Shown here: positions 3,154 through 46,962 of the stretch, piece after piece | Position numbering within the stretch: position 1 is the stretch's first letter | Layout of the letters: each line of letters starts with the position of its first letter | Virus record (IMG/VR): IMGVR_UViG_2541047918_000003 | DNA from: a virus | Lineage: Duplodnaviria; Heunggongvirae; Uroviricota; Caudoviricetes | Length of the DNA: 47,928 nt | Reading direction: 5' to 3' (one strand) | Notes under the pieces: generated by a model | What the model was told of the DNA's origin: nothing | The model's input: only the letters and a program-made list of their open reading frames with translations | The model's database searches: none | Translations under genes and position numbers: made by a program

Positions 3154-3753
3154 TCAGAAACGGTATCCGATACCAACAATAAATGCATCCGTTCGCCAGT
3201 CGCCACTGCCGGAGCCTTCATAAGCAATATCAATGGCCACGGATTCGGTCGGGTTAAACTGCACGCCAGCTCCCCACGCCAGAGAGGTATTGCTGTGGCG
3301 ACCGTCATCACTTCCGGTCAGCACGTCGTGCGTTTTCCCCTTGTTGTCAGTTACGCGGAGATAATCCCCGGAGAAAGTCGACACACGGCTGTAAGCCACA
3401 CCCGCCATCGCATACGCGCTGAACCATTCATTCACGCGCACAGACGGCCCCGCCATCACGCTGAACCAGCGGTTACGCACGGAATCTTCATGCCAGCGGG
3501 TATCGCTGTAATGCGTTTTTTGCTCATCTTTGGCATTGGCATAACTGAATGACGTCACCAGCCCCAGCGTGTCCGTAAACTCATAACGGTATTTCACGTT
3601 AATCCCGTTCAGATCATCGCTGCCTGGCATATCAGTATGGGTCTGAAGATACCCGGCGCTTAGTGTGGACTGATGCTCTGCTGCGCTCGCTGGCGTACCA
3701 GCGGCAACCAGCCAGACTACTGCGGACAGAATAACAGCACATAATTTACGCAT
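3154..3753 (-). CDS. lom: Lom outer membrane protein (Ail/Lom family)
   Basis: 199 aa; signal peptide; beta-barrel pattern ending GIGYRF; position directly after J. Confidence 0.85.
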   Translation of the reverse strand: MRKLCAVILSAVVWLVAAGTPASAAEHQSTLSAGYLQTHTDMPGSDDLNGINVKYRYEFTDTLGLVTSFSYANAKDEQKTHYSDTRWHEDSVRNRWFSVMAGPSVRVNEWFSAYAMAGVAYSRVSTFSGDYLRVTDNKGKTHDVLTGSDDGRHSNTSLAWGAGVQFNPTESVAIDIAYEGSGSGDWRTDAFIVGIGYRF

Positions 3754-3820: not shown

Positions 3821-6800
3821 TCAGCTAATCGTGATGCCTGCAGTGGCTTTCTTCATCACAACAACCAGCAAATCGCTGATACTTGCTGTGGGATACCAGC
3901 CATTTACCCACCATGCTGATACAGAAAACTCCAGCGTCATGTGGCCGCGACCAGCAGGCATATCAATAACACCACTGTAAACCAGCGTATTATCCATCGC
4001 GGTACGGTTATAAATTTCAGCACCGTTTTTCTTCACTATCAGGCGGCATGACGAATAAGTATCGCTGTTCTCCCGCTCATGTCTGGCACCGCTGAAAGCC
4101 ACCGCCGGAATAACAATCTGCCGGTTAAACGGCTGATCGTCATAAACCCTGACGGTAATGGTTCCTGATGGCCAACGCTTCGGTGCACGGGAGTCACGAG
4201 GGAAAGCCTTACCCACTGTTTTAACGAGATCGCCTTCAATCTGGTTTGCAGACAGTTTCCCTCTGATGACACAGTTCTCGTTAATGGTGACATTATTGAG
4301 CGTGCCGGTATTCGCCGTGATGGCTCCACTGATATCCGCATTGCGGGCTGTCAGCCTGCCATCCGGCGTCAGGGAAAACGTCGGAGGATTGCCGGATGAC
4401 GTGATGCTCACCGCAAACAGTCGCTTCAGGAACACGTCGTTCATGAACAGCTGATTCCCCTGCGCCACAAACAGCGGCGTGGTGTTGCCGTTCTCCGGGG
4501 TAATCATCGCAATGCGATCGGCCTGCAGCAGAATGTTACTCAGGGTCTGACCATCAACATCCTCAATCCCCGCGCCAATCCCGGCCACATAGGGAATACC
4601 GTTTTTTGTTTTCTGCACCTTCAGCATATACATGGCATTCAGCTCATTGCGCGTGTCTGACTGAACCCGCTGGATTTGCTGTATGGTCACGGCCTGGTCA
4701 CCCAGCTTTTTATCCGTGGTCGAGGTAATTTCACTCCCTTTTTTATCCACGTACTGGCGGACCTGTGCTATCTGTCGGGCGTTTTCTGACTGCCCCTGGC
4801 TGACAGTCTGTGAGATTTCACTGCTCACCCGGTCCACTTTCTGGCTCACCTGCGCGATGGCCAGTGTCTGGTCCTCATTCTTTTTCGCAACCAGCTGCGT
4901 GAGGCTGTTTTCCGCCTTCCCGATTTTCCGGGTCACTTCTGCGATATCCGTGTCCATCCGCTGACGGATATCTTCTTCCAGTTGCGTGACCTCCGTACGC
5001 AGCGCTGAAGCATCAATGCGCTCTTTCAGTGCCTGACCCAGAAGCGTCTCATCTATCAGCCCCCGGAAAATTTCCAGATACCCTTCACCATCATTGCTGG
5101 GCTGCCCGCTGGCTTCCACAAAAGCAGATTTTCCCACCAGGTTGACGCTTCGCACGTAAAACCAGAAATCCGTCCCCGGCTTAATCCGGCTCCCCTGGAC
5201 AGTCCACTGACTGCCGGTCCCCAGATAACGGGCAGATTTTTCCACCTGTGCTGTGTTCGTGATGCGTTTTTCTGAGAACCAGAATTCAAACTGTACCGTC
5301 GGGTCATACACCGCAAGACGCGGGACCGCCGTTATCTGAAAATACCCCGGCGTCAGCTCAATGGTGGCGGGTTTTGCAGGTGCGTTAATCCGGAACGATA
5401 CCGACGCCGGATCGCCCTGCTGTCCCCGGGCATTTACCGCCCGGACCGTCAGCGTGTAACGCCCCAGCGCCAGCTGCCTGAAGCGGTAAGTGGTTTCCGC
5501 CGTCCGGGCCGTGCTGACCAGCCGCTCACTGCCGTCATCCGCTGTTACGGTCAGACGGAGCAGGAAGCTCACGCCCTTCACCACCTTCGGCGTGTCCCAG
5601 CGCGCCAGCACCTGATATTCCCCGCTGTCTGCGGTGACTTCGGCGGTCAGGTGCTGCACCGCTGGCGGCGTGACACCATTCACCGTGCCGCTCTGGTCGC
5701 CGTCAAAGTGCGCTCCGTTATCCACGATGGCCTCTTTTTCCGGTACATGCTGCACGGCGGTGATGGCATACGCACCGTCATCGTTCTCCCGGATACTCAC
5801 ACAGCGGAACAGGCGCTGGCGCAGCGTCGGCAGCTTCAGCCCCCACACGCTGTATTCGGCAACGCCGTCAGGAATACGGCTCACTTTCACCTTCACGCCG
5901 TCGGTGACGGACTGGACCTCCACGCTGACCGGATTCCCACTTCCGTCAACCAGGCTTATCAGCGTGGTGCCGGAGGATGACAGCATGATTTCACGGTCGA
6001 GCGTCAGCGTCCGGGTCTGGCTGTTCACCGCCAGCACGCGCCCGCCGGTGCTGATACCGGCATAGTCATCATCACAGATTTCAATGACATCGCCCGGAAC
6101 ATGGCGAAGCCCTTCTGCGCCGACGCTGAAGTCCACGGTCTGCGTTTCCAGCAGTTCTGTTTTAATCAGCCACAGCCCGGCGCGGTGTGCCTGCCCCCGG
6201 CTGGTACAGCCAAAGGCATCCATCTTCGTGACGTTACGACCGTAACGGGCAATGGCCTGCGTGTCCTCCACAAGCTCTGTTGCCGTCTCCCAGCCGTTAT
6301 CCGGGTCAATCCAGTTCACCTCAACGGCATTATGGCGGTCCTTCAGGGCGCTGAAGCTGTAGCGGAACGGCGCGCCATCATCCGGCATCACCACATTACT
6401 GCGGTTATAGGTCCACACCTTATCCGACGGTCGGTCCTGCACGAACGTCAGCGTCTGCCCGTTCCATACCGGCATACAGCGCATCGCCGAGCAAAAATCA
6501 CTGAGCACATCCCACGCCTTGCGCTGTGTGGTCAGGTACGCATTACAGGTGATGCGCGGCTCCGTGCCGCCAAAGCCGTCCGGCACTGACTGGTCGCAGT
6601 ACTGGCCGATGACATACAGCGCCCATTTATCCACATCCGCTGCACCAAGACGTTTCCCCATGCCGTAGCGCGGATGGGTCAGCATATCCCACAGACACCA
6701 GGCCATGTTGTTGCTGTATGCCGGTTTAAACGTTCCGTCCCAGATACCGCTGTATTGCCGCGTCTGCGGGTTATAATTCGACGGCACCTGCAGAATACGC

Positions 6801-19368: not shown

Positions 19369-21126
19369 TCACAGAATTAACAGGTCCTCATCAGGATCAA
19401 GCGTGGACAGAAAGTCATTCACGCCCCCTCCATTTACCAGAAAGCGGCTCATGGCTGTAAAAAGCGCAACAGGGCCGTCGATTTTGGCTTCCGGCGTGGA
19501 TTTATTCGGGAAGATGTTGTCGTTTTTGTCCGGTTTTACAGTAACGTTAGACATCATCCAGTTCATGACCGGATGATTGCTGTGATGGAAACGCCCGGCA
19601 TAAACCAGTGATTCCGTTTCCTTCATGGCCTCTGACAGATTGCGGACCGTCTGCGGAACCTCCACCAGCGGTATCCCTTCTTCAGCCAGTGCCAGGCTGA
19701 ACTGCATTGCGCTCCACGGGTCAAATCCCAGTTCCCTGAGGTTTTCACCGCCAATCCATTCCAGTAAGTCACTTTTTATCTGAGCATGATCGATAACATC
19801 ACCATCCGTCAGGATGAGCTTATCCATCTCCGCCCACTTCCGGTAAAGTTCTGCCTGCTGCCGCGAGCATCGTTCCAGCCGTCCTTCCGGAAGCCAGAAT
19901 TTAAAATCAGCATGAACATGTCCGTTATCGGTTCGCCAGAGTTTTGCCGCCGCACAGATATCAATCTTATGAGCAAGGTCGACGCCGACCCACATGGGAT
20001 ATGTTTTCAGCTCATGTTGTGGAGCAATGTATTCGCACTTCTCCCACTTAATCATATCCATCCAGGCAGATTCGGCAGTGACCCACACATTCATGTGTTT
20101 GGTAAAAAAATTCACCCGCGCAGAGACCTGCTCCTTCGCTTTTTTCGCCAGACGACGCAGATCATCCCAGCGTTTACAGATGCCCAGGCCAGGATTCGCT
20201 TTCTGCCAGACCGTTTCATCAAACGGATCATCTCCCTCATCAAGCGTGTAAATGATCGCAAAGTAAGAGTCGTCTTTTACAGCGCCCTCCACGTCGCTGT
20301 TATAGCCTCGCAATACCTTGATGGCGTAATCACGCTGCTCGTAACAAATCCCTTCCTTGTTAAAGCCAGCCGTGGTGATACCAAATAACAGGGACTGCAG
20401 ACGGGCACCGGTTGCCGTTTCCAGAACGTCCCACACGTCGCGGGTTTTATGTGCATGCAGCTCATCAATAATGGCGCAGTGGATGTTCAGACCGTCCAGG
20501 TTGTTTGCATCCGAGGAAAGCGGTTCAAATTTTGATGCGCTCTGCTCCTGGTAAATCGCCAGCTTGTTGAAATCAAACAACCGCCCGAGTGTCGACCGGG
20601 CTTTTCTGACCATATTTTTGGCGTCTTCAAACACGATTCTGGCCTGGTCACGCGTGGTTGCGGCTGAATACACCTCAGCTCCGCCTTCACTATCTGCCCC
20701 CGTCATATACAGGCCGATACCCGATGACAGTGTTGATTTTGCGTTTTTACGGGCGACTTCGTTGTACGCCGTCCGGAACCGGCGCACCATCACCGGACGT
20801 CCGCTGCCATCGCTGCGCATGACAACTTCCCCGGTTTCTTCATTGACCAGCGGAATGACAAAACCAAAAATATTAATGAGGATAAATACATGCCAGTCCA
20901 TCAACTCAATGGGCTGGCCTGCCAGTGCCCCTTTTACATGAGGCACAAATTTGTAGAAATTCAGGATGTGCTGCGCACGGGGTTCACTGAAATAAATCCC
21001 CCGCTTTTCGCCGTACTTCAGATCATCAAGAAAACGCTGGCAGGCCAGGCGGACAAATTCGCCAGCAACAATTTCTCCTGCAACAACACGTTCGGCGTAG
21101 CGGATCCCGTCAGCCACTTTTGCCAT
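19369..21126 (-). CDS. terminase large subunit
   Basis: 585 aa; ATPase N-terminal half and nuclease C-terminal half; ATGA overlap with the small subunit. Confidence 0.85.
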   Translation of the reverse strand: MAKVADGIRYAERVVAGEIVAGEFVRLACQRFLDDLKYGEKRGIYFSEPRAQHILNFYKFVPHVKGALAGQPIELMDWHVFILINIFGFVIPLVNEETGEVVMRSDGSGRPVMVRRFRTAYNEVARKNAKSTLSSGIGLYMTGADSEGGAEVYSAATTRDQARIVFEDAKNMVRKARSTLGRLFDFNKLAIYQEQSASKFEPLSSDANNLDGLNIHCAIIDELHAHKTRDVWDVLETATGARLQSLLFGITTAGFNKEGICYEQRDYAIKVLRGYNSDVEGAVKDDSYFAIIYTLDEGDDPFDETVWQKANPGLGICKRWDDLRRLAKKAKEQVSARVNFFTKHMNVWVTAESAWMDMIKWEKCEYIAPQHELKTYPMWVGVDLAHKIDICAAAKLWRTDNGHVHADFKFWLPEGRLERCSRQQAELYRKWAEMDKLILTDGDVIDHAQIKSDLLEWIGGENLRELGFDPWSAMQFSLALAEEGIPLVEVPQTVRNLSEAMKETESLVYAGRFHHSNHPVMNWMMSNVTVKPDKNDNIFPNKSTPEAKIDGPVALFTAMSRFLVNGGGVNDFLSTLDPDEDLLIL

Positions 21127-21608
21127 CAGTCTCTCGCTTTTAAAAGCTCTGCCAGCGGATCAACATTATCCGGTCCGGCGGTATTTACTTTTGCCCGGCT
21201 TGCCGGTGACATACCAAATTCTGCAAGCATCGCCCGGATCCGCTTCCAGGCATCCGCTTTCATCGCAGCAGCCGGGTGTGCCTTAATCAGCACATCACCG
21301 TTCTGCGTTTCCGAGCGGTAGGTGTACCCCTCAACATCGAGTGTTTCGCAGTGATGCCGGTATTCGGTATAGGCTTCCACCAGTAGCTCAAGCGCACGCG
21401 CATCAAGCTGAGAAATGATCCCTTCCGCATTCAGCTCTTCCGCCATTCGCCTGAACCAGTACTTCCCCTGCGCCCCTAAATGTTGCGGAATTTTAGGGAG
21501 ACCTTTTTCATCCTTTTTAGCGGTTTTTTTGAGGTCTTTAACTGGCCGCTTTGAGGGGTTGCCTCGTATCAAATGCAGGCGTGGCGGGATTTTCGGGGGT
21601 CCAGACAT
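21126..21608 (-). CDS. terminase small subunit
   Basis: 160 aa; basic N-terminus; directly upstream of the large subunit. Confidence 0.7.
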   Translation of the reverse strand: MSGPPKIPPRLHLIRGNPSKRPVKDLKKTAKKDEKGLPKIPQHLGAQGKYWFRRMAEELNAEGIISQLDARALELLVEAYTEYRHHCETLDVEGYTYRSETQNGDVLIKAHPAAAMKADAWKRIRAMLAEFGMSPASRAKVNTAGPDNVDPLAELLKARD

Positions 21609-21680: not shown

Positions 21681-21700
21681 AGGTCAGGCGGCGGTACTGA
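21681..21700. other. candidate cosN (cohesive end site)
   Basis: Minus strand reads ACCGCCGCCTGACCT, resembling the lambda cohesive end GGGCGGCGACCT as recalled; lies between HNH and terS. Confidence 0.3.
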
Positions 21701-21755: not shown

Positions 21756-22106
21756 TCAATTGATGCGTTCGCGCGCTGTTTTTGCTTTATGACAGGGCCA
21801 GCACAGACTCTGCAGGTTACTGTCTGCATCCGTGCCACCATGAGCTTTCGGAATGATGTGGTCCACAGTTCTGGCTTCAACGGCTCTCCCATTGCGCAGG
21901 CAGTTCTGACACAGATGATTATCACGCTTCAGTATGCGCGCACGTATGGCATCCCATTTCGAGCCATAGCCACGCTGGTGGCGGCTCAGTCCGCGTTGAT
22001 GCTGTACCCATCCTTCGCCACGATGTTTATCGCAGTAACCAGAACTGTCTGTGGTTGTACCTGCACATCCACGCTTACGGCAGGCGCGTGGGATTAGTGC
22101 TGGCAT
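21756..22106 (-). CDS. HNH endonuclease (packaging-associated)
   Basis: 116 aa; Cys-rich HNH motif (...DHIIPKAHGGTDADSNLQSLCWPCH...); position before cos/terS. Confidence 0.8.
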   Translation of the reverse strand: MPALIPRACRKRGCAGTTTDSSGYCDKHRGEGWVQHQRGLSRHQRGYGSKWDAIRARILKRDNHLCQNCLRNGRAVEARTVDHIIPKAHGGTDADSNLQSLCWPCHKAKTARERIN

Positions 22107-22244
22107 GTTTCGCCCTTATATAAATCAAAGGTGACCTGCATTGAGTATCTCCATGGAATAGATTTGCTGCTGATATGAGACAGATCAATAGACTTCATGA
22201 GCCAACGGGTGTAGATATTACTTTTTACTTCAGAGGGTTAACTC

Positions 22245-22784
22245 ATGGATATTAAAGATAAAATCAATACCATTTTGTTATGTGACATTGCCATCCACCT
22301 AGGTATCGAAACTGATATTGATCCACAGCTTGTTAAATATGCTGTGTCATCTGGTAATGATTGGGTTATCAAGGCCGAATATTCACATTTGGATGTTGAC
22401 GAACCAAGTAAAGAAGATCGTGATTTTGTTACTGCTGTCTTGAATATGTATCGCGGACTTTCCAATGCTTTCAGGAAACTTAGTGATGACGAGCAAAAAG
22501 AATTAGTCCGTGACCATCATCTAAAAATACATGATGGGGCAATTCAGCTCCCAGGTTTCGACGGTAATAATGAATGCGATTACTTCAGTATCATTGAGGC
22601 ATATCAGAAAATTGATCGCTTCCCCGAACAGAAACAGCCCATTGCCAATACTCATTCACGTACAGAACATCTCTATAACGCAATGCTTGATGAGTTTAAG
22701 AAAATTGACGCTGTAAATCGAAGCTGGGATTTATCGAAGGAAGAACTGGCATCCATTCTTTCCACAGCTCCACGCAGTTTCTAA
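22245..22784 (+). CDS. YfbU (UPF0304)-like protein, moron
   Basis: 179 aa; C-terminal half follows the YfbU pattern as recalled (GFD ... Y.AML ... LS..E...I); GAGGG RBS; AT-rich; own terminator. Confidence 0.5.
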   Translation: MDIKDKINTILLCDIAIHLGIETDIDPQLVKYAVSSGNDWVIKAEYSHLDVDEPSKEDRDFVTAVLNMYRGLSNAFRKLSDDEQKELVRDHHLKIHDGAIQLPGFDGNNECDYFSIIEAYQKIDRFPEQKQPIANTHSRTEHLYNAMLDEFKKIDAVNRSWDLSKEELASILSTAPRSF

Positions 22785-22789
22785 GTGCT

Positions 22790-23056
22790 TTAGGCGGGTT
22801 TCCAACCCGCCTTATTATGCTCGTATATAGAGAAGGAAGCACCCAAATTAACCAGCGCGGATTTCTTTTCCTCAATACGGCTGTTAAGTTCAGCAACTGC
22901 ATGCGGGCGTATGGCCTCAAGAAAAGCACTATATTGATAGGCAGACTGGATTGTCACACCAAGCCCTGCACCACTTTCCAGTATACCTTTCTGTCGCTGT
23001 AGCTCTTTCATCTCGTTATAGATGTAATGTGCGTTACTTAGGTTTTCTACGTTCAC
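22790..23056 (-). CDS. hypothetical protein (doubtful)
   Basis: 88 aa; GTG start; its 3' end is encoded by the terminator palindrome of the opposite strand. Confidence 0.25.
   Translation of the reverse strand: MNVENLSNAHYIYNEMKELQRQKGILESGAGLGVTIQSAYQYSAFLEAIRPHAVAELNSRIEEKKSALVNLGASFSIYEHNKAGWKPA
22793..22818 (+). terminator. intrinsic terminator of the YfbU-like moron
   Basis: Perfect 8-bp stem GGCGGGTT/AACCCGCC, loop TCCA, then TTATTAT. Confidence 0.6.
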
Positions 23057-23211
23057 GCCCTAAGTTCTTCCTGCAGTTAGCCTGCACTGATTTGTTATGC
23101 GCCAATATGTCCCGCTTCGTCTGTTGCATTATCATAAGTAATAGCGTAGGTTGACACCTTGGCTCTCTTTCGCCACCGGCGAATCTTTAGCGGATTATCC
23201 TTGGCCGGTTT

Positions 23212-23679
23212 TTATCTGAGACATTGCTCACGAATGTATAGCTGTGCCCCTTCCAGTTGCTTCTGCATCGTCATCAACCGTTCTCTGAGGGTGAAATAAT
23301 CCCGTTCAGCGGTGTCTGCCAATCTGGGGCTGGTTGCATTATCCACGCTGGTGGGTCCGGTGGCTTCACGCACGGCTGCGGAGCAACTGGCATTGACCCG
23401 CAGGCGCTTACGACCAGCGGCAACATCAGCGCGCAGAGTTTCATTTTCAGCTTTCGCATTGGCTAATTCTCTCGAGTACTTTGCATCGAGCGCAGCAACA
23501 TCACGCTGACGCTGCTGCATGTCAGCGATGGTGGCGGTCAGCTGCTTCAGCTCACTGACTTTTTTATCACGCTGTTCTTTGTAGGTGATGGCGTTATCAC
23601 GGTAATGATTGACCGCCCACGACAGGCAGACGATGATGCAGATAACCAGAGCATAAATAATCGCGGCGACTCTGCTCAC
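23212..23679 (-). CDS. Rz: i-spanin Rz
   Basis: Lambda Rz-like ([25 protein letters not shown]...); GTG start overlapping the endolysin stop. Confidence 0.8.
23274..23459 (-). CDS. Rz1: o-spanin Rz1 lipoprotein, embedded in Rz in another frame
   Basis: 61 aa; lipobox LVVSAC; Pro-rich; lambda Rz1-like; entirely inside Rz. Confidence 0.75.
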
Positions 23680-24209
23680 TGATCTATTCCCCAACAGGCT
23701 AATGCGCTTTCTTGGTCACGACGAATAACCTGTCCATAGCAGTTATTTGAACGTATGCGGCAATCGCGCCCACCATCTTTTATCCACCAGCGAATCGCCT
23801 CGCATGCGCCCTTACGATCACCAGCATTCAGCCGCTTATAAAACGTCGATGGAAAACACTTACCGGGGCCAATGTTATAGGGACAAAATGACGCGATACC
23901 CGCTTTTTGTGGTTCGGTCAGTGGTACTTTAATATTGCGCTCCACCCATGCCAGCGCCTTATCACGCTCAATGGCGTTGACCTGGTCGCATTTTTCCTTC
24001 GACAGTTTCATACCGGGAAAAACGGGTTTTCCATCCACCATCGTGGCACCCCGACAGATGGTCCAGATGCCGGAACCATCGCGGTATGCCGTTGTGTGGT
24101 TACCTTCTTTTTCATCCAGAAACTGGTCGAGAATATCAGGCGCGGGCGCACCGACGGCAATCAGTGCCAGAACGGCAGCCGACAGGCCGTATCTGATTTT
24201 TGCGTTCAT
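23676..24209 (-). CDS. R: endolysin, T4-lysozyme-like with N-terminal SAR domain
   Basis: 177 aa; N-terminal uncharged hydrophobic stretch; catalytic region with E, D and T residues. Confidence 0.8.
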
Positions 24210-25014: not shown

Positions 25015-25044
25015 AAAAAGGCCCCAACACATGTGCGTGGGGCC
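25015..25044 (-). terminator. minus-strand intrinsic terminator downstream of the tRNA cluster
   Basis: GGCCCCA/TGGGGCC stem followed by T5 on the minus strand. Confidence 0.45.
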
Positions 25045-25283
25045 TGAGAGTATACATGGTTTCAGTCAACTGCATGGTGCCGGGTGCCTCCCGGTGAATT
25101 CAGTACCAGCACCTGAATCCGCGATTATCCCATATACCTACTCGCTGATTGCCCCTCCGCACAGGGGGATTCACCATGCCAGTTTCTTTTAACAAACTCC
25201 CCGCAAAACAGACAACTGTCAACCGTCTGAATTGTGAGACATTTAAAAAAAGGCCCGCAAAAGCGAGCCGGGAAAAATAAGTC

Positions 25284-25360
25284 TGGCGCGTTGTACTGGA
25301 TTCGAACCAGTGACCGATTGCTTAGAAGGCAATTGCTCTGTCCGGTTGAGCTAACAACGC
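25284..25360 (-). tRNA. argO: tRNA-Arg (anticodon UCU)
   Basis: 77 nt; cloverleaf; anticodon loop CTTCTAA; T-arm GGTTCGAATCC; encoded CCA. Confidence 0.85.
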
Positions 25361-25373
25361 AGGGTACAGATAA

Positions 25374-25450
25374 TGGACCGCCATCGAGGACTCGAACCCC
25401 GCGCAACCAGCTTCGAAGGCTGGCGCTCTATCCTGATGAGCTAATGGCGG
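25374..25450 (-). tRNA. argN: tRNA-Arg (anticodon UCG)
   Basis: About 77 nt; anticodon loop CTTCGAA; T-arm TTCGAGT; CCA end; exact 5' end uncertain by 1 nt. Confidence 0.75.
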
Positions 25451-25457
25451 TATGTGA

Positions 25458-25533
25458 TGGTGGCCCTTGCTGGATTTGAACCAGCGACCTGGCGATTATG
25501 AGTCGCTCGCTCTCACCACTGAGCTAAAGGGCC
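25458..25533 (-). tRNA. ileZ: tRNA-Ile2 (anticodon CAU, lysidine type; would also score as Met)
   Basis: 76 nt GGCCCTTTAGCTCAGTGG...CTCATAA...GGTTCAAATCC...GGGCCACCA; close to E. coli ileX as recalled. Confidence 0.85.
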
Positions 25534-36029: not shown

Positions 36030-36244
36030 TGGCTAATTTATCCCCTGTATCTGTTGTGCACGAAAAAGTGCAGATCGTTATGACAATTGAAAATGGCCAG
36101 GTAACAGATGTCTGCAAAGTCCGCGATGGAGAGCTGATTGCCAGCATGGATACATTCATATGGCTGGCAGAAAGAGCGGGGTATCAGATAACAGCACCTG
36201 CTCAGGAGGAAACCAGTGACATTAACAGCAACGCGAATTCCTGA
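36029..36244 (+). CDS. hypothetical protein (71 aa)
   Basis: GGAGG RBS; start overlaps the upstream stop. Confidence 0.45.
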   Translation: MANLSPVSVVHEKVQIVMTIENGQVTDVCKVRDGELIASMDTFIWLAERAGYQITAPAQEETSDINSNANS

Positions 36245-36434
36245 GTGGGTCCACCAGCAGGCGTTGCTGGTCCTGCGGCGGTACAGATGCCGACGTATAT
36301 TCCCGCATCGGATACAGCGCAACGGATATCTCAGTCTGAAGGTTAACCGTCGCTGGCGGCTGTTATCGAAAGACGACGGCCGGAACTGGGAAATAATGAG
36401 TCATGAACGTTATTCGGGAGAAATAAAGAAATGA
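36216..36434 (+). CDS. hypothetical basic protein (72 aa)
   Basis: GTG start with AGGAGG RBS; Arg-rich; overlaps both neighbours. Confidence 0.4.
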   Translation: MTLTATRIPEWVHQQALLVLRRYRCRRIFPHRIQRNGYLSLKVNRRWRLLSKDDGRNWEIMSHERYSGEIKK

Positions 36435-36883: not shown

Positions 36884-37072
36884 ATGAACATTTATTTCAG
36901 AATAGTTATATCACTGGCAATTATCGCATGTATTTACGGATTGCTCGTCCCGTTTCTGATATCAATGAAGGATACGGTAGCGGTGATTTCTGGCTTTGCA
37001 CTGACGTTTCTAACCCCGCCATGTATTTATACCATTTATAAGGGGCTTTCTTTCACTAAGGATAAAAGATGA
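36884..37072 (+). CDS. small membrane protein with two predicted transmembrane helices
   Basis: 62 aa; AGGAGG RBS; ATGA overlap with the SPFH gene. Confidence 0.5.
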   Translation: MNIYFRIVISLAIIACIYGLLVPFLISMKDTVAVISGFALTFLTPPCIYTIYKGLSFTKDKR

Positions 37073-37896
37073 AAAAAATTATTTTTTCTTTAGCCATTGT
37101 TCTGCCTGCCATTGGCCTTGTCGGTTGTGATCGTGTTGAGCCTGGTAATGTGGGCATCAAAGTCAACAAACTTGGCGACGACAAAGGCGTCGGTGAAGTG
37201 GTCGGTGTTGGTCGCTACTGGACAGGCTGGAACACTGAAGTTTATATCTTCCCGACCTTTAAGCAGATGAAGACCTACGATGATCCATTCAGTTTCCAGA
37301 TGAGCGATGGAACAACCATTGGTTACCACATCGGAGTAGCCTACAAGGTTGATCCATCCAAAGTTACCACAGTCTTTCAGACCTACCGCAAAGGCGTGGA
37401 CGACATTACCGACACCGACCTGCGCCAGAAGATAGCCGACGCACTCAACCGACTGGCCAGCAAAATGACCACCGACAAATTTATCGACGGCGGCAAGTCT
37501 GAGCTGCTGGATGCAGCTCTTAAAGACATTCAGGAAGAAATGACGCCCATCGGTATTCAGGTAATAAGCCTCTCATATGTGGGTAAGCCGGAGTACCCGC
37601 CTACTGTTATCGACAGCATTAATGCCAAAGTCACGGCGAACCAGAAAACTCTGCAACGCGAGCAGGAAGTAAAACAGCGCGAAGCGGAAGCCAACATGTT
37701 GCGCGCGGAAGCTGCCGGACAGGCTGATGCGATTCGCACAAAAGCCCAGGCTGAAGCCGATGCTATTCGTTTACGCGGTGAAGCTCTGCGTCAGAACCCC
37801 GGTGTTATGGAGCTGGAAGCCATCAATAAATGGAACGGCACGCTGCCGCAATACATGACCAGCGGTGCCAATACACCATTTATCCAGGTTAAATAA
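37069..37896 (+). CDS. SPFH (band 7 / prohibitin-like) lipoprotein
   Basis: 275 aa; signal peptide with lipobox LVGC; SPFH-like core; coiled-coil Ala/Glu/Gln-rich C-terminal region. Confidence 0.75.
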   Translation: MKKIIFSLAIVLPAIGLVGCDRVEPGNVGIKVNKLGDDKGVGEVVGVGRYWTGWNTEVYIFPTFKQMKTYDDPFSFQMSDGTTIGYHIGVAYKVDPSKVTTVFQTYRKGVDDITDTDLRQKIADALNRLASKMTTDKFIDGGKSELLDAALKDIQEEMTPIGIQVISLSYVGKPEYPPTVIDSINAKVTANQKTLQREQEVKQREAEANMLRAEAAGQADAIRTKAQAEADAIRLRGEALRQNPGVMELEAINKWNGTLPQYMTSGANTPFIQVK

Positions 37897-39033: not shown

Positions 39034-40347
39034 ATGGATAAAGTCAAATATCCAACAGGCGTCGAAAACCACGGCGGCACATTACGCATCTGGTTTAATT
39101 TTAAAGGTAAACGTGTCAGGGAAAATCTTGGTGTCCCTGACACTGCCAAGAACAGGAAGATCGCCGGGGAACTGCGGACATCAGTATGTTTTGCCATCCG
39201 CACAGGAAGCTTTGATTATGCTGCACAGTTCCCTGACTCCCCCAACCTTCAGGCTTTTGGGGTAAGTAAAAAAGAAATTACGGTGAAGGAACTTGAAGAA
39301 AAGTGGCTGGATCTGAAACGAATGGAAATCTCTGCAAATGCATTCAATCGCTATGAATCCGTTGCAAGAACGATGGTTCCGAAAATTGGAGGCAGTAAAC
39401 TGGTGTCATCGGTAACCAAAGAGGAATTGCTGTATATCAGGAAAGATTTGCTGACCGGGTATCAGAATTCAACGAAAAACAAAGCAGCAGCAAAAGGACG
39501 GAGCGTCGTTACTGTAAATTATTACATGACGACAATCGCTGGAATGTTTCAGTTTGCTGCAGATCACGGTTACTTAGAAGCAAATCCCTTCCAGGGAATT
39601 AAGCCTCTTAAAAGAGCCAGGGCAGAGCCAGATCCGCTAACTCGTGACGAATTTATTCGCCTGATAGATGCTTGCCGACATCAGCAGACGAAAAACCTGT
39701 GGTCATTGGCTGTGTACACAGGAATGCGTCACGGTGAACTGGTCTCCCTGGCCTGGGAAGATATCGATCTGAAGGCAGGAACAATTACCATCAGGCGCAA
39801 TTATACGAAACTTGGTGAGTTCACTCTACCGAAAACTGAAGCAAGCACAAACAGGGTTGTGCACCTTATCCAGCCCGCTATCAGTGTCCTGAAAAATCAG
39901 GCTGAAATGACAAGACTGGGTAAGCAGTACAACATCAAGGTGCAACTACGTGAATATGGACGTTCAGTGAACCATGAATGTACTTTCGTGTTTAACCCTC
40001 AAGTGGTTAGAAAAAGCGAACAGGTAGGTTTTGTCTACAAAGTCGATTCTGTAGGTGACTCATGGGAAACAGCCATTAAGCGTGCAGGGATCAGGCATCG
40101 AAAGGCATACCAGTCACGACACACTTATGCGTGCTGGTCATTATCTGCCGGAGCAAACCCAAGCTTCATTGCCAGCCAGATGGGCCATGCAAGTGCCCAG
40201 ATGGTATTCAATGTATACGGAGCATGGATGACTGACAGCAATGCAGAACAGATCGCAATGCTGAATCAGAAGCTGACAGATTATGTCCCAATGATGCCCC
40301 ATAGTCACCAAAGTGACACCAGAGGCTTATTAAAATCAGTAAGTTAA
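39034..40347 (+). CDS. int: tyrosine integrase
   Basis: 437 aa; conserved Arg, His-x-x-Arg (SRHTYACW) and C-terminal Tyr; GGAGG RBS; stop abuts the host gene remnant. Confidence 0.9.
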   Translation: MDKVKYPTGVENHGGTLRIWFNFKGKRVRENLGVPDTAKNRKIAGELRTSVCFAIRTGSFDYAAQFPDSPNLQAFGVSKKEITVKELEEKWLDLKRMEISANAFNRYESVARTMVPKIGGSKLVSSVTKEELLYIRKDLLTGYQNSTKNKAAAKGRSVVTVNYYMTTIAGMFQFAADHGYLEANPFQGIKPLKRARAEPDPLTRDEFIRLIDACRHQQTKNLWSLAVYTGMRHGELVSLAWEDIDLKAGTITIRRNYTKLGEFTLPKTEASTNRVVHLIQPAISVLKNQAEMTRLGKQYNIKVQLREYGRSVNHECTFVFNPQVVRKSEQVGFVYKVDSVGDSWETAIKRAGIRHRKAYQSRHTYACWSLSAGANPSFIASQMGHASAQMVFNVYGAWMTDSNAEQIAMLNQKLTDYVPMMPHSHQSDTRGLLKSVS

Positions 40348-40373
40348 TCCTTAATACCCGTCATGTTAACTGC

Positions 40374-40775
40374 GTGGAGGGTAACACCACGCTTTATGCC
40401 CTGCCGAAACCCGAGGTTGTCCTGCGCTGGCGTGAGCAGACCACAGATGACTTCCGCTTCTGTTTTAAGTTTCCGGCGACCATTTCGCATCAGGCAGCAT
40501 TACGGCATTGCGATGATTTAGTGACTGAATTTTTGACCCGCATGTCACCGTTGGCTCCGCGCATTGGACAATACTGGCTGCAACTGCCTGCCACATTCGG
40601 CCCACGGGAGCTGCCTGCGCTTTGGCATTTTCTCGATTCTCTTCCCGGTGAATTTAATTATGGGGTGGAAGTCCGCCATCCACAGTTTTTCGCCAAAGGG
40701 GAAGAGGAACAAACGCTTAATCGCGGTTTACATCAGCGCGGCGTTAATCGGGTGATTTTTATTAGACACGTTTAA
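40374..40775 (+). pseudogene. yecE: internal fragment of a DUF72-family host gene (yecE-like), truncated at both ends
   Basis: 133-aa ORF with a DUF72-like pattern (EGNTTLYALPKPEVVLRW...FRFCFKFPATISH...); frame is open upstream into the int 3' end; sequence diverges at about 40757. Confidence 0.6.
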
Positions 40776-40825
40776 ATACACCATCTAAAACGATACAATC
40801 TAGGGCATCAGTTTTGAGGTGAACA

Positions 40826-42349
40826 ATGAAACGTGCCATTTCTTACATCAGGTTTTCATCTGAGAAGCAATCCCGAGGTGATTCATTACGCCGACAGTCT
40901 AAGATGGTTAATGACTGGCTTAAGGCTCATCCTGAGTACTACCTTGACCAAGATTTATCTTTTCGTGATTTGGGGGTGAGTGGGTTCACTGGTAAGCACT
41001 TGAAAGGTGGCTTAGGTGACTTTTTAACCGCTATCGAGAAAGGGCTTGTTAAAGCTGGTGATACGCTCTTGATAGAATCTCTTGACCGTCTGTCACGTCA
41101 AGATGTAGACCAAGCAAGTGAGCTACTCAGAAACATTCTTCGCTCTGGTGTAGATGTGGTCACCTTGTCCGATGGTGAACATTACACAAAGGAAAGCTTA
41201 AAAGACCCGTTAGCTCTGATTAAAAGCATTTTGATAATGCAGCGGTCGCATGAGGAGAGTTTGCGTAAATCTGAACGTATCCAAGCTGCATGGGATGCAA
41301 AGAAAGAAGCTGCTAAAGCCGGTATCAAGATTTATAAGCGTTGTCCTGCATGGCTTAAGCTTAATGATGACCGTAAGACCTTCTCTGTGATACCTGAGAA
41401 GGTAGAAACTGTGAAGAGGTGCTTTCAATTACGGTTAGAGGGTAAGTCTATTTGGGAGATTGTCAGGACTCTTAATGATGAAGGTCACCAGACACTTAAC
41501 CAGTACAAAGCAGGTAAGTTTGGTCAAACCTCAGTGCAAGACCTTCTGAAAAATCGCTCTGTAATTGGTTACTTCACACCTAAAGGCTGTGAGGAGATAG
41601 CTGGTTATTTCCCCCCTATCATCCCTGAGACTGATTTCTACAAAGTCCAGCAACTATCATATTCTCGTTATGGAAGAAAGCCTGCTTCAGATAAACCATT
41701 GAGTGTGAATCTTTTCAAAGGTGTTATCCGTTGTTCTGAATGTGGTCATGCTTTGATTATCACAGGCTTTAGCGATACAAGAAACGGGATTTATCGTTGT
41801 CCTCTTCGTAATGAAAACCGTTGTAGTGCTAAAGGACTTTCACGTAAGCAAACCGATGGTACATTGCTTGCCCTGCTATCCCGTATAGACCGATTTGATA
41901 GCGATATGACGAATACCATAGACACACTGAAGCTACACCGTGAACACATCTCAAGCAATATTGAAAAGCTGGTACAGCTATCACTTGAAATTGAAGACTT
42001 GTCCGCTATTACCAGCAAACTAAAACAGTTAAAAGGTGAGCTATCACAGGTTGATGCGGATATCGAGAAGGAGACACAACGCCTTAAATCTATTGATGTT
42101 GGTTGTTTGTCTGATTGTGACTTGACTACAAAGGCGGGAAGGATTGAAGCACAACTGATAATCAAAAGTGCTGTTAAAGAGGTCATTTTAAATACTGCTA
42201 AACGTCGCTGTAAAGTAACTTTTCACAATAGTAAGTCAATCACCCTACCAATAACAGAAACCCCCTCAGAGGACGTTACAGAGGCTATACAGTCGCTTTC
42301 TGAAGTCACTGAGAGGGGGTTGATAGATGTTGATGAGGTTATCATATAG
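40826..42349 (+). CDS. large serine recombinase (integrase)
   Basis: 507 aa; N-terminal resolvase-type domain MKRAISYIRFSSEKQ; Cys-containing recombinase domain and coiled coil; GAGGTG RBS. Confidence 0.9.
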   Translation: MKRAISYIRFSSEKQSRGDSLRRQSKMVNDWLKAHPEYYLDQDLSFRDLGVSGFTGKHLKGGLGDFLTAIEKGLVKAGDTLLIESLDRLSRQDVDQASELLRNILRSGVDVVTLSDGEHYTKESLKDPLALIKSILIMQRSHEESLRKSERIQAAWDAKKEAAKAGIKIYKRCPAWLKLNDDRKTFSVIPEKVETVKRCFQLRLEGKSIWEIVRTLNDEGHQTLNQYKAGKFGQTSVQDLLKNRSVIGYFTPKGCEEIAGYFPPIIPETDFYKVQQLSYSRYGRKPASDKPLSVNLFKGVIRCSECGHALIITGFSDTRNGIYRCPLRNENRCSAKGLSRKQTDGTLLALLSRIDRFDSDMTNTIDTLKLHREHISSNIEKLVQLSLEIEDLSAITSKLKQLKGELSQVDADIEKETQRLKSIDVGCLSDCDLTTKAGRIEAQLIIKSAVKEVILNTAKRRCKVTFHNSKSITLPITETPSEDVTEAIQSLSEVTERGLIDVDEVII

Positions 42350-42363
42350 TTGAGATTCTATCG

Positions 42364-43137
42364 TCAGAATCGCTTGTTAGGATTCACAGAAAATTTCTTC
42401 AAAGTACTACCTGTACCAGCATTATTAAGCACCTTTGAAGCTTGCGCATTAGCGGCATCTGAGAAGGTGCTTTTTCCATTCTCAACTTTGACACTTTTAC
42501 CACAATTGATACGGGCTTGAAGTTGCTCATTAGTGAGTTCACTCGTAGAGCGATTATATAGCTCCTGACACAGCAACATACCATTACCTAGACTTGTCGT
42601 AGTGTTACCAGTGTTCTTCTTAGAAGTTGCACCACCATCATTCGTGGTAGCAGTCTTTCCAGTTGCAGCAGAAATATCAGTCTGACCAACAATAGCTTTG
42701 AAGTTAATTTCCTGAAAAGTTAGCTGGATTCTTAGACCGTTTGAAATCCCCACATCTTTAGAGGCTTTAAAACTCGTAATAATGGAATCGTCAATTTTAA
42801 TTCCGTCTTTACAGATGACCGAAATAATCTGTTTCTGGTCACGCCAGCTTTCAAGAGTGTCGATGAAGTTTTCTACTAATTGACCCTGACGAGTTAATAA
42901 TAAGCTTCCTTCATAGCCAACTACAACGACACCACTAATAGTGATTGTTCTGGGTGCTCTTTGCACATTATCTGTAACGGTTTGTCCTGATTGCATGTTC
43001 TGTGTAGTCACCTGCATAGGACTATCAAATTCCATGTTTTCAGTTGCTGATAAGGTTAAGAAGGCATCTACATTATCTCTTAAGTGGAAATAGATGCCGT
43101 CTTTGCCACTATATTTGATTTGGTTAGAGTAAATCAT
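42364..43137 (-). CDS. hypothetical protein downstream of the tape measure (possible distal tail protein)
   Basis: 257 aa from the ATG at 43137 with AAGGGGAA upstream; Ser/Thr/Asn-rich. Confidence 0.45.
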
Positions 43138-43211
43138 TAAATTCCCCTTTGATTTCAAAGGCTTAGTGTATTTTAATCATTTTTAACCAAGCCTTTGATA
43201 TATAAGTGTTT

Positions 43212-43288
43212 TCTCTGTTAAGCGTGTTGTACGTAAATTCTATTTTTCAGTGTGGGTATTAGCTTTACAGATTTCACGTAGCATTCGA
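43212..43288. repeat. copy A of a ~77-bp direct repeat
   Basis: Shares CTCTGTTAAGCGTG, TACGTAAA and AGATTTCACGTAGCA with copy B at 45357-45433. Confidence 0.6.
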
Positions 43289-43294
43289 CTATTA

Positions 43295-45343
43295 TCAATC
43301 ATCTTCTGGGAATGATGAACTTAATAGCGTAGCTTCTGCGTATTGGTCGTAGATATTACTGCTAAAGGTCATAAAGCTGGTTTCATCTGGTTTAATGGCA
43401 ACTTCACCACCAAGTGAAACTTTCACAGGCTCCTGAATACGTTTGCTCAAAGCACTAATTTCATCTCTCAGGCTTTGGATATCCGTATTCGTTAATGCCG
43501 CATCTTGTCTCATGGTGATTAATTCTGGATGCTGGAAGTTAGCAAGATTCATAGCTGCACTATTAAACCAACCTTTCACATCGTCCATAGTAAATACTGG
43601 CTTAAGTCCAGATTCTTTAGCTAACTCTGGTAATTTAGCTTGTGCTTCCATTCGTTCAGGTGTAGAGGCTAGTCTTTCATAACCTGCATAGAGAGCGCTA
43701 CCAGCTAATAGCATATTCCCAAGATTCAGTCTTGATGGTTTCCCATTCTTTCTATTCACGTTATCCGCTGTAGTATCAGCAACCTGACCTAATCTTGTGA
43801 TAGCAGTCATAAGCCCGTAAATACTTCTGGTTACACCAACAACTTTATTTACAGCAATAACACCAGCCAAGACTTTTAAACTATTAATCAAGCCAGAACC
43901 TAAAGCATCAACAACTTTCTTTTGTTCATCGGTTAAACCACGATAAGCTAATGTCACCTCATCAAAGAACGCTCGCACCTTGTAACTAATATCGGCCAGA
44001 CTATCGACACCATGTGACATATCAGTCATCAAGCTACCAAGAGATTCACCAAGACTTTTACCACTTCCACCAAGAGCGTTTAAAAGCGTTGTTAAGCTTC
44101 TTGTAAAATCTTGCAGACCACTTTCAGAACCTCTGAAGATACTATCAAGCGTGGTATTCCAAGAGTTTTTCAGGTTCCCTAATTGTGCCTGTGTACTTTC
44201 TGAAATAGCTTTCCAGCCACCTTTAGCGGTGATTTGTCTATTCAGTTCCTGAGTGACCTTCTGAAGAGTATCGGCAGATTTTAAAGCCCCCTTCTTCATG
44301 GCATCAAATAATTCCTGTTCAGTCTTTCCGGTTGCTTTAGCGAATACCTGAACCATACCAGGAACAGCTTCAGCTAGTTGCCCCTTAAGCTCTTCAGCCA
44401 TAACCTGACCCTTACCAGCCATCTGTGATAATGCTGTCAGTGCTCGCTTAATCTCTTCTTCACTTCGACCCATCAGACGAGAATAGCCAATCATACTTCT
44501 AAAAAGTTCTTCAGAACCTTGAATACCCATAGACTCTTTAGCTGAAGCACCGAAACCAGCAAACTGTGATTGCAGTTCAGCGATATCTAAACCCGTTGTT
44601 TGAGCTAATGACTTTGTGAACTCTTTTACCTGACCTGCATCTTTATCAAATACGAAATCAATTGAACGTTCAGCACTTGCACGCTGTAAACCAATTTCCA
44701 TTACTCGCTGATAAGCTGCCAAAGCACTTTGAAAAGTGTAAATAGCCGTACCCGCTTTAATTGCACTTGAAGCTAGTACATCTAAACCATTTGAAGCATT
44801 TTCACTGTGATTATTTTTGCTGGTGGTCTTGTTAAACTTAGAAAGTGTTTCACGTAGATTTTGATTTAACTTTGCTAACTCACGATTAAAAGCTTCGTTT
44901 CCAAGTGTCTTGGATTTACTACTTAATGCGTAAAACTGACTCTTAATGTATTTCTCGACAATTGGGTTAAGACCTTTCAGCTTAGACATATTCGCTGAAT
45001 AAGCCGCTGTGATTGCTCTGTTGCCGCTAATTCGTGGCTGTCTTGGCTGTCTAAGTGGCTTTAAAGTATCCTCAATTTCCGTTTTAATCTTAAACGCTCT
45101 AGTGTTTTTAAGACGCTGCTCAATCTTGTCAAAGGTCTTATTAAACTTCCTTTCAAGTTGCCCTAAAGAACTTGTCAGATTGCTGTCAAGTTGCTTGGTA
45201 TCGACCTTAAACGCTCTATTCAAATTACGTTCAATTCTTTGTGCTGACTGCAAAGCTGCCTTTTCAACTCTTTGCAAGCCCTTAATAACGTTCTCGCTGA
45301 AGCCTAGCTCAACGATAAAACTATCAACTTTAAATTGTGCCAT
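43295..45343 (-). CDS. phage tail tape measure-like protein
   Basis: 682 aa; central motif RALTALSQMAGKGQVMAEELKGQLAEAVPGMVQVFA; long coiled-coil segments; GAGGTGA RBS. Confidence 0.7.
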   Translation of the reverse strand: MAQFKVDSFIVELGFSENVIKGLQRVEKAALQSAQRIERNLNRAFKVDTKQLDSNLTSSLGQLERKFNKTFDKIEQRLKNTRAFKIKTEIEDTLKPLRQPRQPRISGNRAITAAYSANMSKLKGLNPIVEKYIKSQFYALSSKSKTLGNEAFNRELAKLNQNLRETLSKFNKTTSKNNHSENASNGLDVLASSAIKAGTAIYTFQSALAAYQRVMEIGLQRASAERSIDFVFDKDAGQVKEFTKSLAQTTGLDIAELQSQFAGFGASAKESMGIQGSEELFRSMIGYSRLMGRSEEEIKRALTALSQMAGKGQVMAEELKGQLAEAVPGMVQVFAKATGKTEQELFDAMKKGALKSADTLQKVTQELNRQITAKGGWKAISESTQAQLGNLKNSWNTTLDSIFRGSESGLQDFTRSLTTLLNALGGSGKSLGESLGSLMTDMSHGVDSLADISYKVRAFFDEVTLAYRGLTDEQKKVVDALGSGLINSLKVLAGVIAVNKVVGVTRSIYGLMTAITRLGQVADTTADNVNRKNGKPSRLNLGNMLLAGSALYAGYERLASTPERMEAQAKLPELAKESGLKPVFTMDDVKGWFNSAAMNLANFQHPELITMRQDAALTNTDIQSLRDEISALSKRIQEPVKVSLGGEVAIKPDETSFMTFSSNIYDQYAEATLLSSSFPEDD

Positions 45344-45356
45344 TGTTCATATTTCA

Positions 45357-45433
45357 CCTCTGTTAAGCGTGAGCTACGTAAAAAATAATTTTTGGTGGGT
45401 ATATCTGTTCAGAAGATTTCACGTAGCACACAT
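45357..45433. repeat. copy B of the ~77-bp direct repeat
   Basis: About 80 percent identical to copy A; lies in the leader region upstream of the tape measure gene. Confidence 0.6.
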
Positions 45434-45526
45434 ACAAAAAAGGGAGAAACTACCGAATAATATCGATAATCTCTCCCCGTGTTATAGATTCGATAGAACC
45501 TATCTCATACACCCAACCAATCTTTT

Positions 45527-45736
45527 TTAATGCCTGACAAGATAATGTAGTTCCGTTTCACCTATAATTTGAGCATCGGAAGGGATACGGTCGATACACC
45601 ACTTTGGAATCTTGCGTGTTTTTGGTTTGCGTGAGGTGATAATTTGATGTTTGGTTTTAATTCTTAAGGCTGGCTTAGTTTGTAACTTTAAGTTTTCACA
45701 AACAGACCGAATAGTCTCTAAACGTTCTTCAAACAT
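45527..45736 (-). CDS. hypothetical basic protein (69 aa)
   Basis: AAGAGGTGA RBS; Lys/Arg-rich. Confidence 0.45.
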   Translation of the reverse strand: MFEERLETIRSVCENLKLQTKPALRIKTKHQIITSRKPKTRKIPKWCIDRIPSDAQIIGETELHYLVRH

Positions 45737-45759
45737 TAATCACCTCTTTTAATTCATAA

Positions 45760-46467
45760 TCAAAGTGCTTTGCTGTATTTCTGAGAAATCTTCGTTAACT
45801 GCTCAATATCAGCCTGCATAGCAACCTTCTTCTGCGTTTCATAGTCACTAATAATCGCTTTCATGCTATCAAGTTCTTTTTTAAGCTTTTGCTTTAACTT
45901 ATCCAGTTTACCGGAATAATGCTTAGTCAAATTAGCTTCAGCTAACTGAAGAATCTCTTCATCTGTTTTATCACTCATCAGAATAAATTGACCAGAACCC
46001 CTTAATGCTTGTCTGACATCAATTAACCGGAACCCTTCAGGGATACTTTGAAGAACTTTAGGAACGTCTTCAATCGCTGTACCAAAACCATCATTAAAGT
46101 TTCCTTCATAATAGATAAACGGGTTTGACTTAATCTCGTAAGCAATATCATATTCTGAAGGTTTCGAGGTTTCTTCGAAGTTCTTAACCGCATCGTAAGC
46201 AATATCAAGTTTAATTCTTTGTGCTTTCAGTAGTGGGTAATATTCACGCTCAAGCTCAAGTAATGATTCAGTTTTGCATACATCAGGCATCTCTTGAGGT
46301 TCAGGAGTCACAAAGATGATTTCCTTTGGTGACATCTTTAACTCTTGCTCAAGTGCAATTCTTTCATCGTGCTCTTTGCGCTGAATAGCGATAGCTGGAT
46401 GTTCAGTCTGTGGTGACCAGTCACCGAAGCTATCAATCTTTTTACCGTTAATATATAGATTTTCCAT
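45760..46467 (-). CDS. hypothetical protein (235 aa)
   Basis: Start MENLYINGKK at the ATG at 46467 with GAGGAAAA upstream; coiled-coil C-terminus. Confidence 0.5.
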   Translation of the reverse strand: MENLYINGKKIDSFGDWSPQTEHPAIAIQRKEHDERIALEQELKMSPKEIIFVTPEPQEMPDVCKTESLLELEREYYPLLKAQRIKLDIAYDAVKNFEETSKPSEYDIAYEIKSNPFIYYEGNFNDGFGTAIEDVPKVLQSIPEGFRLIDVRQALRGSGQFILMSDKTDEEILQLAEANLTKHYSGKLDKLKQKLKKELDSMKAIISDYETQKKVAMQADIEQLTKISQKYSKAL

Positions 46468-46720
46468 TTCATTTTCCTCTTCTAAGTAATATTCAGTTTT
46501 TAAAAAGCACACCTGACAGCCTATCTAAACTTAGAAGAGACTTAAAAGGCGGTTTGCCAAGTATGCTTTTTAAAAGCTGAAAAAGCCCTAAACATAGGTG
46601 ATTCGGATATTCATGGAATCATCCTTATCTGTGAAGGGCTTTGGAGGTTTGCTTTATAACGTTAACGAAGTTTCAGGAAAAACTTTCTTTAAAAGTTCTG
46701 TTTAAAAACTCTTAAAGAAA

Positions 46721-46740
46721 GCCCTAATCATGATTAGGGC
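46721..46740. promoter_or_regulatory. 20-bp perfect palindrome, candidate operator
   Basis: GCCCTAATCATGATTAGGGC; the AGCCCTAA half-motif recurs at about 46585, 47006 and 47413. Confidence 0.45.
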
Positions 46741-46962
46741 AAAGCTGTAAAGGGTTCAATGAATGAATGATTAAGCACTTTTCGAGATGACCTCTCAGGT
46801 TATATAAGAGGCCATGTAGCGAAAAGCATTGCACCTTTCAGAATAACTATCCCTAGATGTAGATGGAATTGTTGAAAGAAATAAGAGAGCAATTCTCTCT
46901 ATAATTAAAATTATGTCATGCTTAAGGTTATTTGTCAACAGCTTTTTAACAGATTGGTAACA

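Follow-up and report, generated by a model that had tools for sequence, protein, structure and literature searches.

Background

A yfbU-like gene carried by the 47,928-nucleotide Caudoviricetes record IMGVR_UViG_2541047918_000003 of IMG/VR (the whole stretch of DNA analysed, hereafter the window) has its closest described counterparts in the chromosomal protein YfbU of Escherichia coli, in the lactococcal protein Kamadhenu and in morons of lambdoid phages, such as bor of lambda. The YfbU structure dates from 2004; lysogens express bor, and morons were defined by Juhala et al. (2000). As for function, the MazF-linked death that follows DNA damage depends on chromosomal yfbU (PMC2646832). Kamadhenu, a 180-amino-acid (aa) PF03887 protein encoded by the lactococcal plasmid pUCCL624_130, is a single-gene abortive-infection system, which by itself makes cells strongly resistant to skunaviruses and phage c2. 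The phenotype resembles abortive infection, with protection at low multiplicity of infection and collapse or stasis at high multiplicity (PMC11381338). All phages that escape it share one alteration, G22, which affects a Sak-like single-strand annealing protein (PMC12184496). An earlier note on the window, made from its letters alone, had singled out the gene as a YfbU-like moron and held its family to be one without established function, a view that these studies have made outdated.

The gene is located at 22245..22784 on the plus strand and encodes 179 aa from an ATG start. Like Kamadhenu, its product is a lone YfbU-domain protein of about 180 aa on a mobile element, partnerless and found in prophages and on a plasmid; unlike the gene of the window, Kamadhenu belongs to a different phylum and is carried by a plasmid rather than a prophage. 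As with bor and other lambdoid morons, the gene occupies, in antisense orientation, the slot that separates Rz from the packaging genes; it also has a foreign base composition and a hairpin past its stop codon, whereas Bor is an outer-membrane lipoprotein and the unrelated protein of the window is predicted to be cytoplasmic and helical. The gene is very probably a YfbU-family single-gene moron, which would have been horizontally acquired as cargo at the point where lysis and packaging genes meet in a lambdoid prophage of the P27/HK97 type. By analogy with Kamadhenu, a lysogen-expressed anti-phage function is tentatively proposed for it.

Insertion cassette and local signals

The window corresponds to a lambdoid prophage whose head module is of the P27/HK97 type. 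Blastn comparisons with phages phi467 and vB_EcoS-640R1 (640R1) showed that similarity ends at position 22106, the start codon of the HNH endonuclease gene, and restarts at 23242/23249, within the 3' end of the Rz gene, which delimits a variable cassette (22107..23245) made of the yfbU-like gene and of a convergent ORF, orf88. Its left flank is the HNH endonuclease gene of the P27-type packaging module (21756..22106, minus strand; Pfam HNH 60.4 bits, with concordant PGAP and phage annotations) and its right flank the Rz spanin gene, the last of the lysis cassette (23212..23694, minus strand; Pfam Phage_lysis 167.8 bits, PGAP 'lysis protein', with a PGAP start at 23679). The gap between HNH and Rz amounts to 72 bp in phi467 vs. 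1.1 kb in the window, while the same slot is filled by a plus-strand Bor gene and a small ORF in 640R1, and by other small ORFs in phiP27. Since HNH and Rz are adjacent in phi467 and Bor occupies the same slot in 640R1, the yfbU-like gene is, from these alignments, an insertion.

Base composition agrees with the AT-richness reported in the earlier note, the GC content being 0.37-0.40 over the gene vs. 0.50-0.55 in both flanks. The 138-bp non-coding region upstream (22107..22244, plus strand) contains the ribosome-binding site (RBS) that had also been described, GAGGG at 22233-22237, with a spacing of 7 nt to the ATG, and its final ~45 nt are conserved with an 83%-identical homologue (L006). 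The gene is the sole intact plus-strand gene within a minus-strand block of about 32 kb (939 to ~33245), so that the description of it as the only plus-strand gene in 33 kb of minus-strand late genes was essentially right; the block, however, is slightly shorter, includes early-right, replication and Q genes besides the late genes, and contains a plus-strand pseudogene fragment (~25031-25189) between the holin gene and three prophage tRNA genes (Arg, Arg, Ile), the pseudogene and tRNA calls being those made by PGAP in the 99.9%-identical region of strain JNEC-KY173. The location given in the earlier note, between cos and the lysis genes, had to be corrected. The position equivalent to the phiP27 cos, obtained by alignment with the annotated phiP27 misc_feature 'cos-site' and therefore approximate, is 21685..21694; because it maps between terS (21126-21608, minus strand, preceded by TerL at 19369-21126 on the same strand) and HNH, the yfbU-like gene is not beside cos, which lies beyond HNH, and is found between HNH and Rz. 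Of the classic moron layout, the insertion, the composition and the hairpin stand, and a promoter detectable by consensus is missing.

The hairpin is a stem-loop at 22793..22819, GGCGGGTT-tcc-AACCCGCC followed by TTATTATG, which starts 8 nt past the stop codon and consists of a perfect 8-bp stem (GGCGGGTT/AACCCGCC, 22793-22811) closed by a loop of 3 nt; in the RNAfold structure, one more A-U pair extends the stem to 9 bp. The 51-nt hairpin stretch has a folding energy of -16.2 kcal/mol (z = -2.9), one in 200 shuffles folding equally well. Its sequence doubles as the last codons of orf88. Among the homologues, each diverged copy has its own, different stem-loop directly past the stop codon, and some of these are textbook terminators, such as GGGGTAATATTAGCCCCTTTTTT. 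The stem-loop of the window is a candidate plus-strand terminator.

No long minus-strand ORF was present beneath the yfbU-like gene. The dN/dS ratio of the gene vs. homologues of ~57% identity is ~0.10-0.12, synonymous sites being already saturated even in the comparison with the 83%-identical homologue. Because of this ratio of about 0.1, the ORF is, on sequence evidence, a real gene under purifying selection. The exact gene was found in 225 of 5426 complete E. coli genomes (~4%), chromosomal in all of them, and its reading frame is intact in 224. Some variants of 143-156 aa (P0029, P0032, P0035 and P0038) show 95-98% identity limited to their first ~100 residues, and a further sequence (H43) has a partial DNA match to the gene; all five are classed as truncated or recombinant alleles.

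The other ORF of the cassette, orf88 (22790..23056, minus strand, 88 aa), matches PHROG 5415, of unknown function, at E = 2e-38, and has no Pfam match. It was found in 208 E. coli genomes vs. 224 for the yfbU-like gene, the two thus largely travelling together. In strain GPEC1031, orf88 is pseudogenised by an internal stop (L111 2495-2734) with the yfbU-like gene intact, and in the diverged homologues its position is taken by unrelated ORFs. It is considered a passenger because of this decay and replacement. The possibility that orf88 is a functional partner or a toxin-antitoxin mate was rejected on the same observations, the co-travel being confined to E. coli.

Protein family and fold

The YfbU likeness, which the earlier note had proposed, was borne out by a hidden Markov model search: the protein matches the Pfam YfbU family (PF03887) with 46.3 bits vs. 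a cut-off of 25 (E = 6.5e-12, residues 46-172), and both its fold and its PGAP name, 'YfbU family protein' (WP_000351660.1), agree. It also matches PHROG 6084, of unknown function, at E = 8e-83. At the level of single sequences, blastp of the window protein vs. K-12 YfbU gave no significant match, and a search of the PDB sequences gave no YfbU match. With a profile of 30 homologues, the YfbU structures 1WPB/4LR3 were retrieved from the PDB sequences at E = 3e-9, and structural alignments indicated the YfbU two-domain helical fold, with 15-16% identity to chromosomal YfbU. As this identity is low and the score against the NCBIfam YfbU equivalog (NF003936) is 34.8 bits, below the cut-off of 90, the protein is, by these comparisons, a genuine member of the YfbU fold family and a distant paralogue, not an orthologue, of chromosomal YfbU.

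The two proteins have in common the two-domain helical fold and, in the profile alignment, a GFD...E...Y core. They differ in their N-terminal third, which is barely alignable by sequence, and at H137, invariant in the phage clade and replaced by Q in chromosomal YfbU (b2294, UPF0304; 1WPB, 4LR3), whose gene belongs to a housekeeping locus, hxpA-yfbU-yfbV, whereas that of the window lies on a mobile element. Residues C13, A33, W40, G104-F105-D106, N109-E110, H137 and Y144 are invariant across the 30 homologues. The hallmark of the clade is an invariant GFDGNNE motif, and its carriers are prophages, plasmids and defence islands.

An exhaustive profile search provided 2112 cluster representatives with E <= 1e-3, of which 850 also passed E <= 1e-10; these relatives are mostly of 170-190 aa and aligned over their full length. 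A subset of YfbU-clade proteins of 225-240 aa (P0070, P0074, P0104 and P0112) has an N-terminal ribbon-helix-helix (RHH, CopG-like) extension, with weak and repeated matches to RHH_1, which hints that the YfbU domain can couple to DNA binding or autoregulation. On one contig (L027), the gene for such an RHH-YfbU protein (4001-4717) overlaps an upstream unknown gene of 306 aa; two other contigs were too short for their context to be read.

Distribution and contexts of the relatives

Relatives of the gene are spread across Enterobacterales prophages and plasmids; those at 50-83% identity were found in Enterobacter, Hafnia, Providencia, Kosakonia and other genera. In every prophage context read, they have the lysis cassette on one side and the small terminase gene on the other and are antisense to both flanks; this placement holds for P27/HNH-type as well as Nu1/GpA-type terminases and across three or more distinct lysis cassettes. 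A 32%-identical homologue is likewise antisense in a lambdoid prophage, upstream of the holin gene. Outside prophages, a conjugative plasmid of Kosakonia has a 50%-identical copy as lone cargo; a RES/Xre toxin-antitoxin pair is close by, and no phage genes are in the vicinity. The ORFs downstream of the homologues are unrelated, and no conserved partner gene is apparent.

Among sequenced phages the fold is rare, with four of 50,697 phage records (three phages) and a single model in the viral structure library (BFVD). A copy of 32% identity in the P2-like Yersinia phage vB_YenM_324 shares its strand with the tail genes and belongs to an accessory cluster located where the prophage ends; a first assignment of this copy to the P2 Z/fun hotspot was withdrawn, since the whole record places it in that cluster.

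At a greater distance, Enterococcus plasmids widely encode a YfbU family protein of 172 aa (146 plasmid records). As on plasmid p3 of E. faecium Aus0085 (L019 3998-5035), its gene is followed, after 6 nt, by a gene for a 170-aa hypothetical protein without family match, and the neighbours include insertion sequence (IS) elements and a Fic gene. These plasmid genes are possibly cargo of the Kamadhenu kind.

Defence genes near distant relatives

A scan of one genome per species provided 80 loci at 24-60% identity, 79 of which are at 24-37%, the exception being an Enterobacter sp. (60%). In 28 of the 75 loci with a recognised ORF, the gene directly before the YfbU-like one encodes a protein of ~166 aa, always from one conserved family and with an N-terminal transmembrane (TM) helix; the two genes share a strand and are separated by -29 to +25 nt. 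Examples among loci L030-L109 are L063 (5469-6543), L041 (5465-6546) and L038 (5452-6534). The TM protein has no significant Pfam or PADLOC match, and the YfbU-like proteins paired with it (183-190 aa) belong to the GFDGNNE clade. This TM plus YfbU-like module, present in Pseudomonas, Psychrobacter, Marinomonas, Arcobacter and others, resembles the gene of the window by its clade, the similar protein size and a full-length identity of 25-36%, and differs from it in being operon-paired with a membrane protein, often among defence genes, whereas the prophage gene is solo. A TM partner hidden beside the prophage gene was also considered and rejected, as the profile of the partner family at E <= 1 found no copy in the window or in the enterobacterial prophage loci.

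Three operons, picked from seven for their promising look, have recognisable defence neighbours: PrrC and a type I HsdR upstream and JukA/JukB downstream in Arcobacter, a ThsA-like STALD protein plus DUF4297/HerA in Pseudomonas corrugata, and a TIR protein in Marinomonas. A PADLOC scan of 104 neighbour proteins, which gives per-family counts and not an enrichment, also matched a retron-type 2TM protein, two mad1 proteins and a second TIR protein. These neighbourhoods are suggestive of a defence role, and the TM protein and YfbU-like operon may be regarded as a candidate undescribed two-gene defence module.

Proposed function and alternatives

In the tentatively preferred reading, an anti-phage function of the Kamadhenu type, the gene would be transcribed from the plus strand in the lysogen, transcription ending at its own hairpin. 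The protein would sense a DNA replication or recombination step of a superinfecting phage and trigger growth arrest or death of the infected cell, thereby protecting the lysogen population by abortive infection. The antisense orientation would let the strong, Q-antiterminated late transcription silence the gene once the resident prophage becomes lytic.

Several points weigh against this function, in addition to the choice of loci and the type of counts mentioned above. At the level of expression, neither the tool scan nor a strict scan found a sigma-70-like promoter with at least 8/12 matches in the 138-bp upstream region; in a relaxed scan, the best matches reached 7-8/12 with poor 19-nt spacers, and a non-consensus promoter is possible. 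As for the 'perfect 8-bp-stem terminator' of the earlier note, its stem was confirmed, but UUAUUAUG, its tail, contains little U, and the hairpin at 22793-22811 went unflagged in the terminator scan because too few U are left for the rule of the tool once the extra A-U pair is counted. With no recognisable promoter and such a tail, we infer lysogen expression rather than read it from the signals. At the level of the protein, the link between Kamadhenu and the prophage gene exists only at the family level (PF03887), and no Lactococcus entry was among the matches listed in plasmid tblastn searches with the window protein and the E. faecium YfbU, or in a protein search with the latter. Of the YfbU proteins on Firmicute plasmids, the nearest one, that of E. 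faecium, has 24.6% full-length identity to the window protein and is closer to chromosomal YfbU (30%), and functions may therefore differ between clades. Against PADLOC-DB v2.0.0, the window protein matched no family at E <= 1, a result explained by the age of the database (2023), which predates Kamadhenu. Finally, we know of no enzymatic or effector activity for the YfbU fold.

Among the alternatives, the one that survives best is an action on host physiology or induction rather than on phages: the protein would tune the DNA-damage response, through faster or slower death or SOS coupling, in favour of induction or of lysogen survival. Chromosomal YfbU, whose fold the prophage protein shares, is a 'death gene' solely under DNA damage (PMC2646832), and DNA damage also induces a prophage with a LexA-family repressor, such as this one; the plasmid-borne copy further indicates that the gene works outside phages. 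This alternative is nevertheless considered unlikely, given the 15-16% identity to chromosomal YfbU and the score below the NCBIfam equivalog cut-off, the occurrence of the distant clade-mates among defence genes and not stress genes, and the fact that the sole YfbU-domain protein with both a mobile context and a tested function is anti-phage (PMC11381338).

An extension of the anti-phage reading, quite unlikely as it stands, would make the GFDGNNE clade the sensor of a widespread, undescribed anti-phage system, with the ~166-aa single-TM protein as its dedicated effector in many Proteobacteria, the two genes forming an operon in defence islands. The reduced, solo sensor of enterobacterial prophages and plasmids would then be either toxic alone or able to borrow another membrane effector, conceivably the holin of the resident phage, and would kill cells superinfected by recombination-active phages.

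The constant placement of the prophage copies next to lysis genes, and the possibly holin-like nature of the small single-TM protein with which relatives in other bacteria are paired, would also suit an accessory gene of the lytic cycle, expressed on infection or induction, for instance a counter-defence factor or a lysis-timing regulator. In all prophages examined, however, the gene runs opposite to the late operon and, for this reason, cannot be co-transcribed with the lysis genes. A close homologue is a lone plasmid cargo with no phage genes nearby, the single viral structure model and the four of 50,697 phage records (three phages) do not point to a common phage function, and the related phage phi467 has neither the gene nor a replacement. 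A lytic role is accordingly rated very unlikely. As for a silent passenger, i.e. an acquired gene of high AT content that has no meaningful expression (e.g. H-NS-silenced) and brings no benefit, it would fit the low GC content, the lack of a recognisable promoter and the truncated or fused variants seen in some genomes, and is highly improbable in view of the strong purifying selection with saturated synonymous sites, the frame kept intact in 224 genomes, the position and orientation maintained across phage backbones and genera, and the decay of the neighbouring orf88 while the yfbU-like gene stays intact.

The YfbU family annotation was already available and the layout is that of a textbook moron, so the finding is in these respects largely ordinary. 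New elements are the corrections concerning cos and the promoter, the 'bor-slot, antisense, solo' pattern conserved across phage backbones, the link to a validated YfbU-domain defence protein, and the paired TM and YfbU-like operon in defence neighbourhoods. If the Kamadhenu-like function were true, a system so far described only in Lactococcus would be extended to prophages of Gram-negative bacteria, and the YfbU fold, still without a biochemical function, could be studied in a convenient E. coli model, in which well-known phage annealases would be the candidate triggers. Such a function would also add a further factor to be considered in phage therapy and in prophage-mediated phage exclusion, and the TM protein and YfbU-like operon would become a candidate new two-gene system. 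If inactive against phages, the gene would be one more moron of unknown use.

Other features of the prophage

In rising coordinates, the minus-strand block consists of tail genes, capsid, protease, portal, TerL, TerS and HNH; to the right of the yfbU-like gene, it continues with orf88, Rz, lysozyme, YdfR, holin, tRNAs, Q, DUF968 and replication genes up to ~33245. A truncated DNA-methyltransferase pseudogene, likewise called by PGAP in strain JNEC-KY173, adjoins the prophage tRNA genes; together with the plus-strand pseudogene fragment, this group is placed at about 25031-25189 (plus strand) and 25284-25533 (minus strand). Between the tail-tip J gene and the tail-fibre gene lies a gene for an Ail/Lom-family outer-membrane protein (3154-3753, minus strand), an assignment that follows the PGAP name given to the corresponding region in strain 4/4. 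This prophage would then have a second gene of the lysogenic-conversion type, located on the late strand like lambda lom.

Past ~33245, a gene for a LexA-family repressor is found on the plus strand, followed by the integrase gene (39034-40347) and then by a second prophage fragment. The early-left region contains a ParE-family toxin-like gene (36216-36434) and a gene for an SPFH-domain protein (37069-37896), both on the plus strand. No single-strand annealing protein was seen among the annotations of this prophage. In the region past the integrase (40329-47928), a disrupted DUF72 gene is probably the attachment locus, after which a second, unrelated prophage begins with a serine recombinase-family gene (40826-42349), a baseplate gene and a tape-measure gene.

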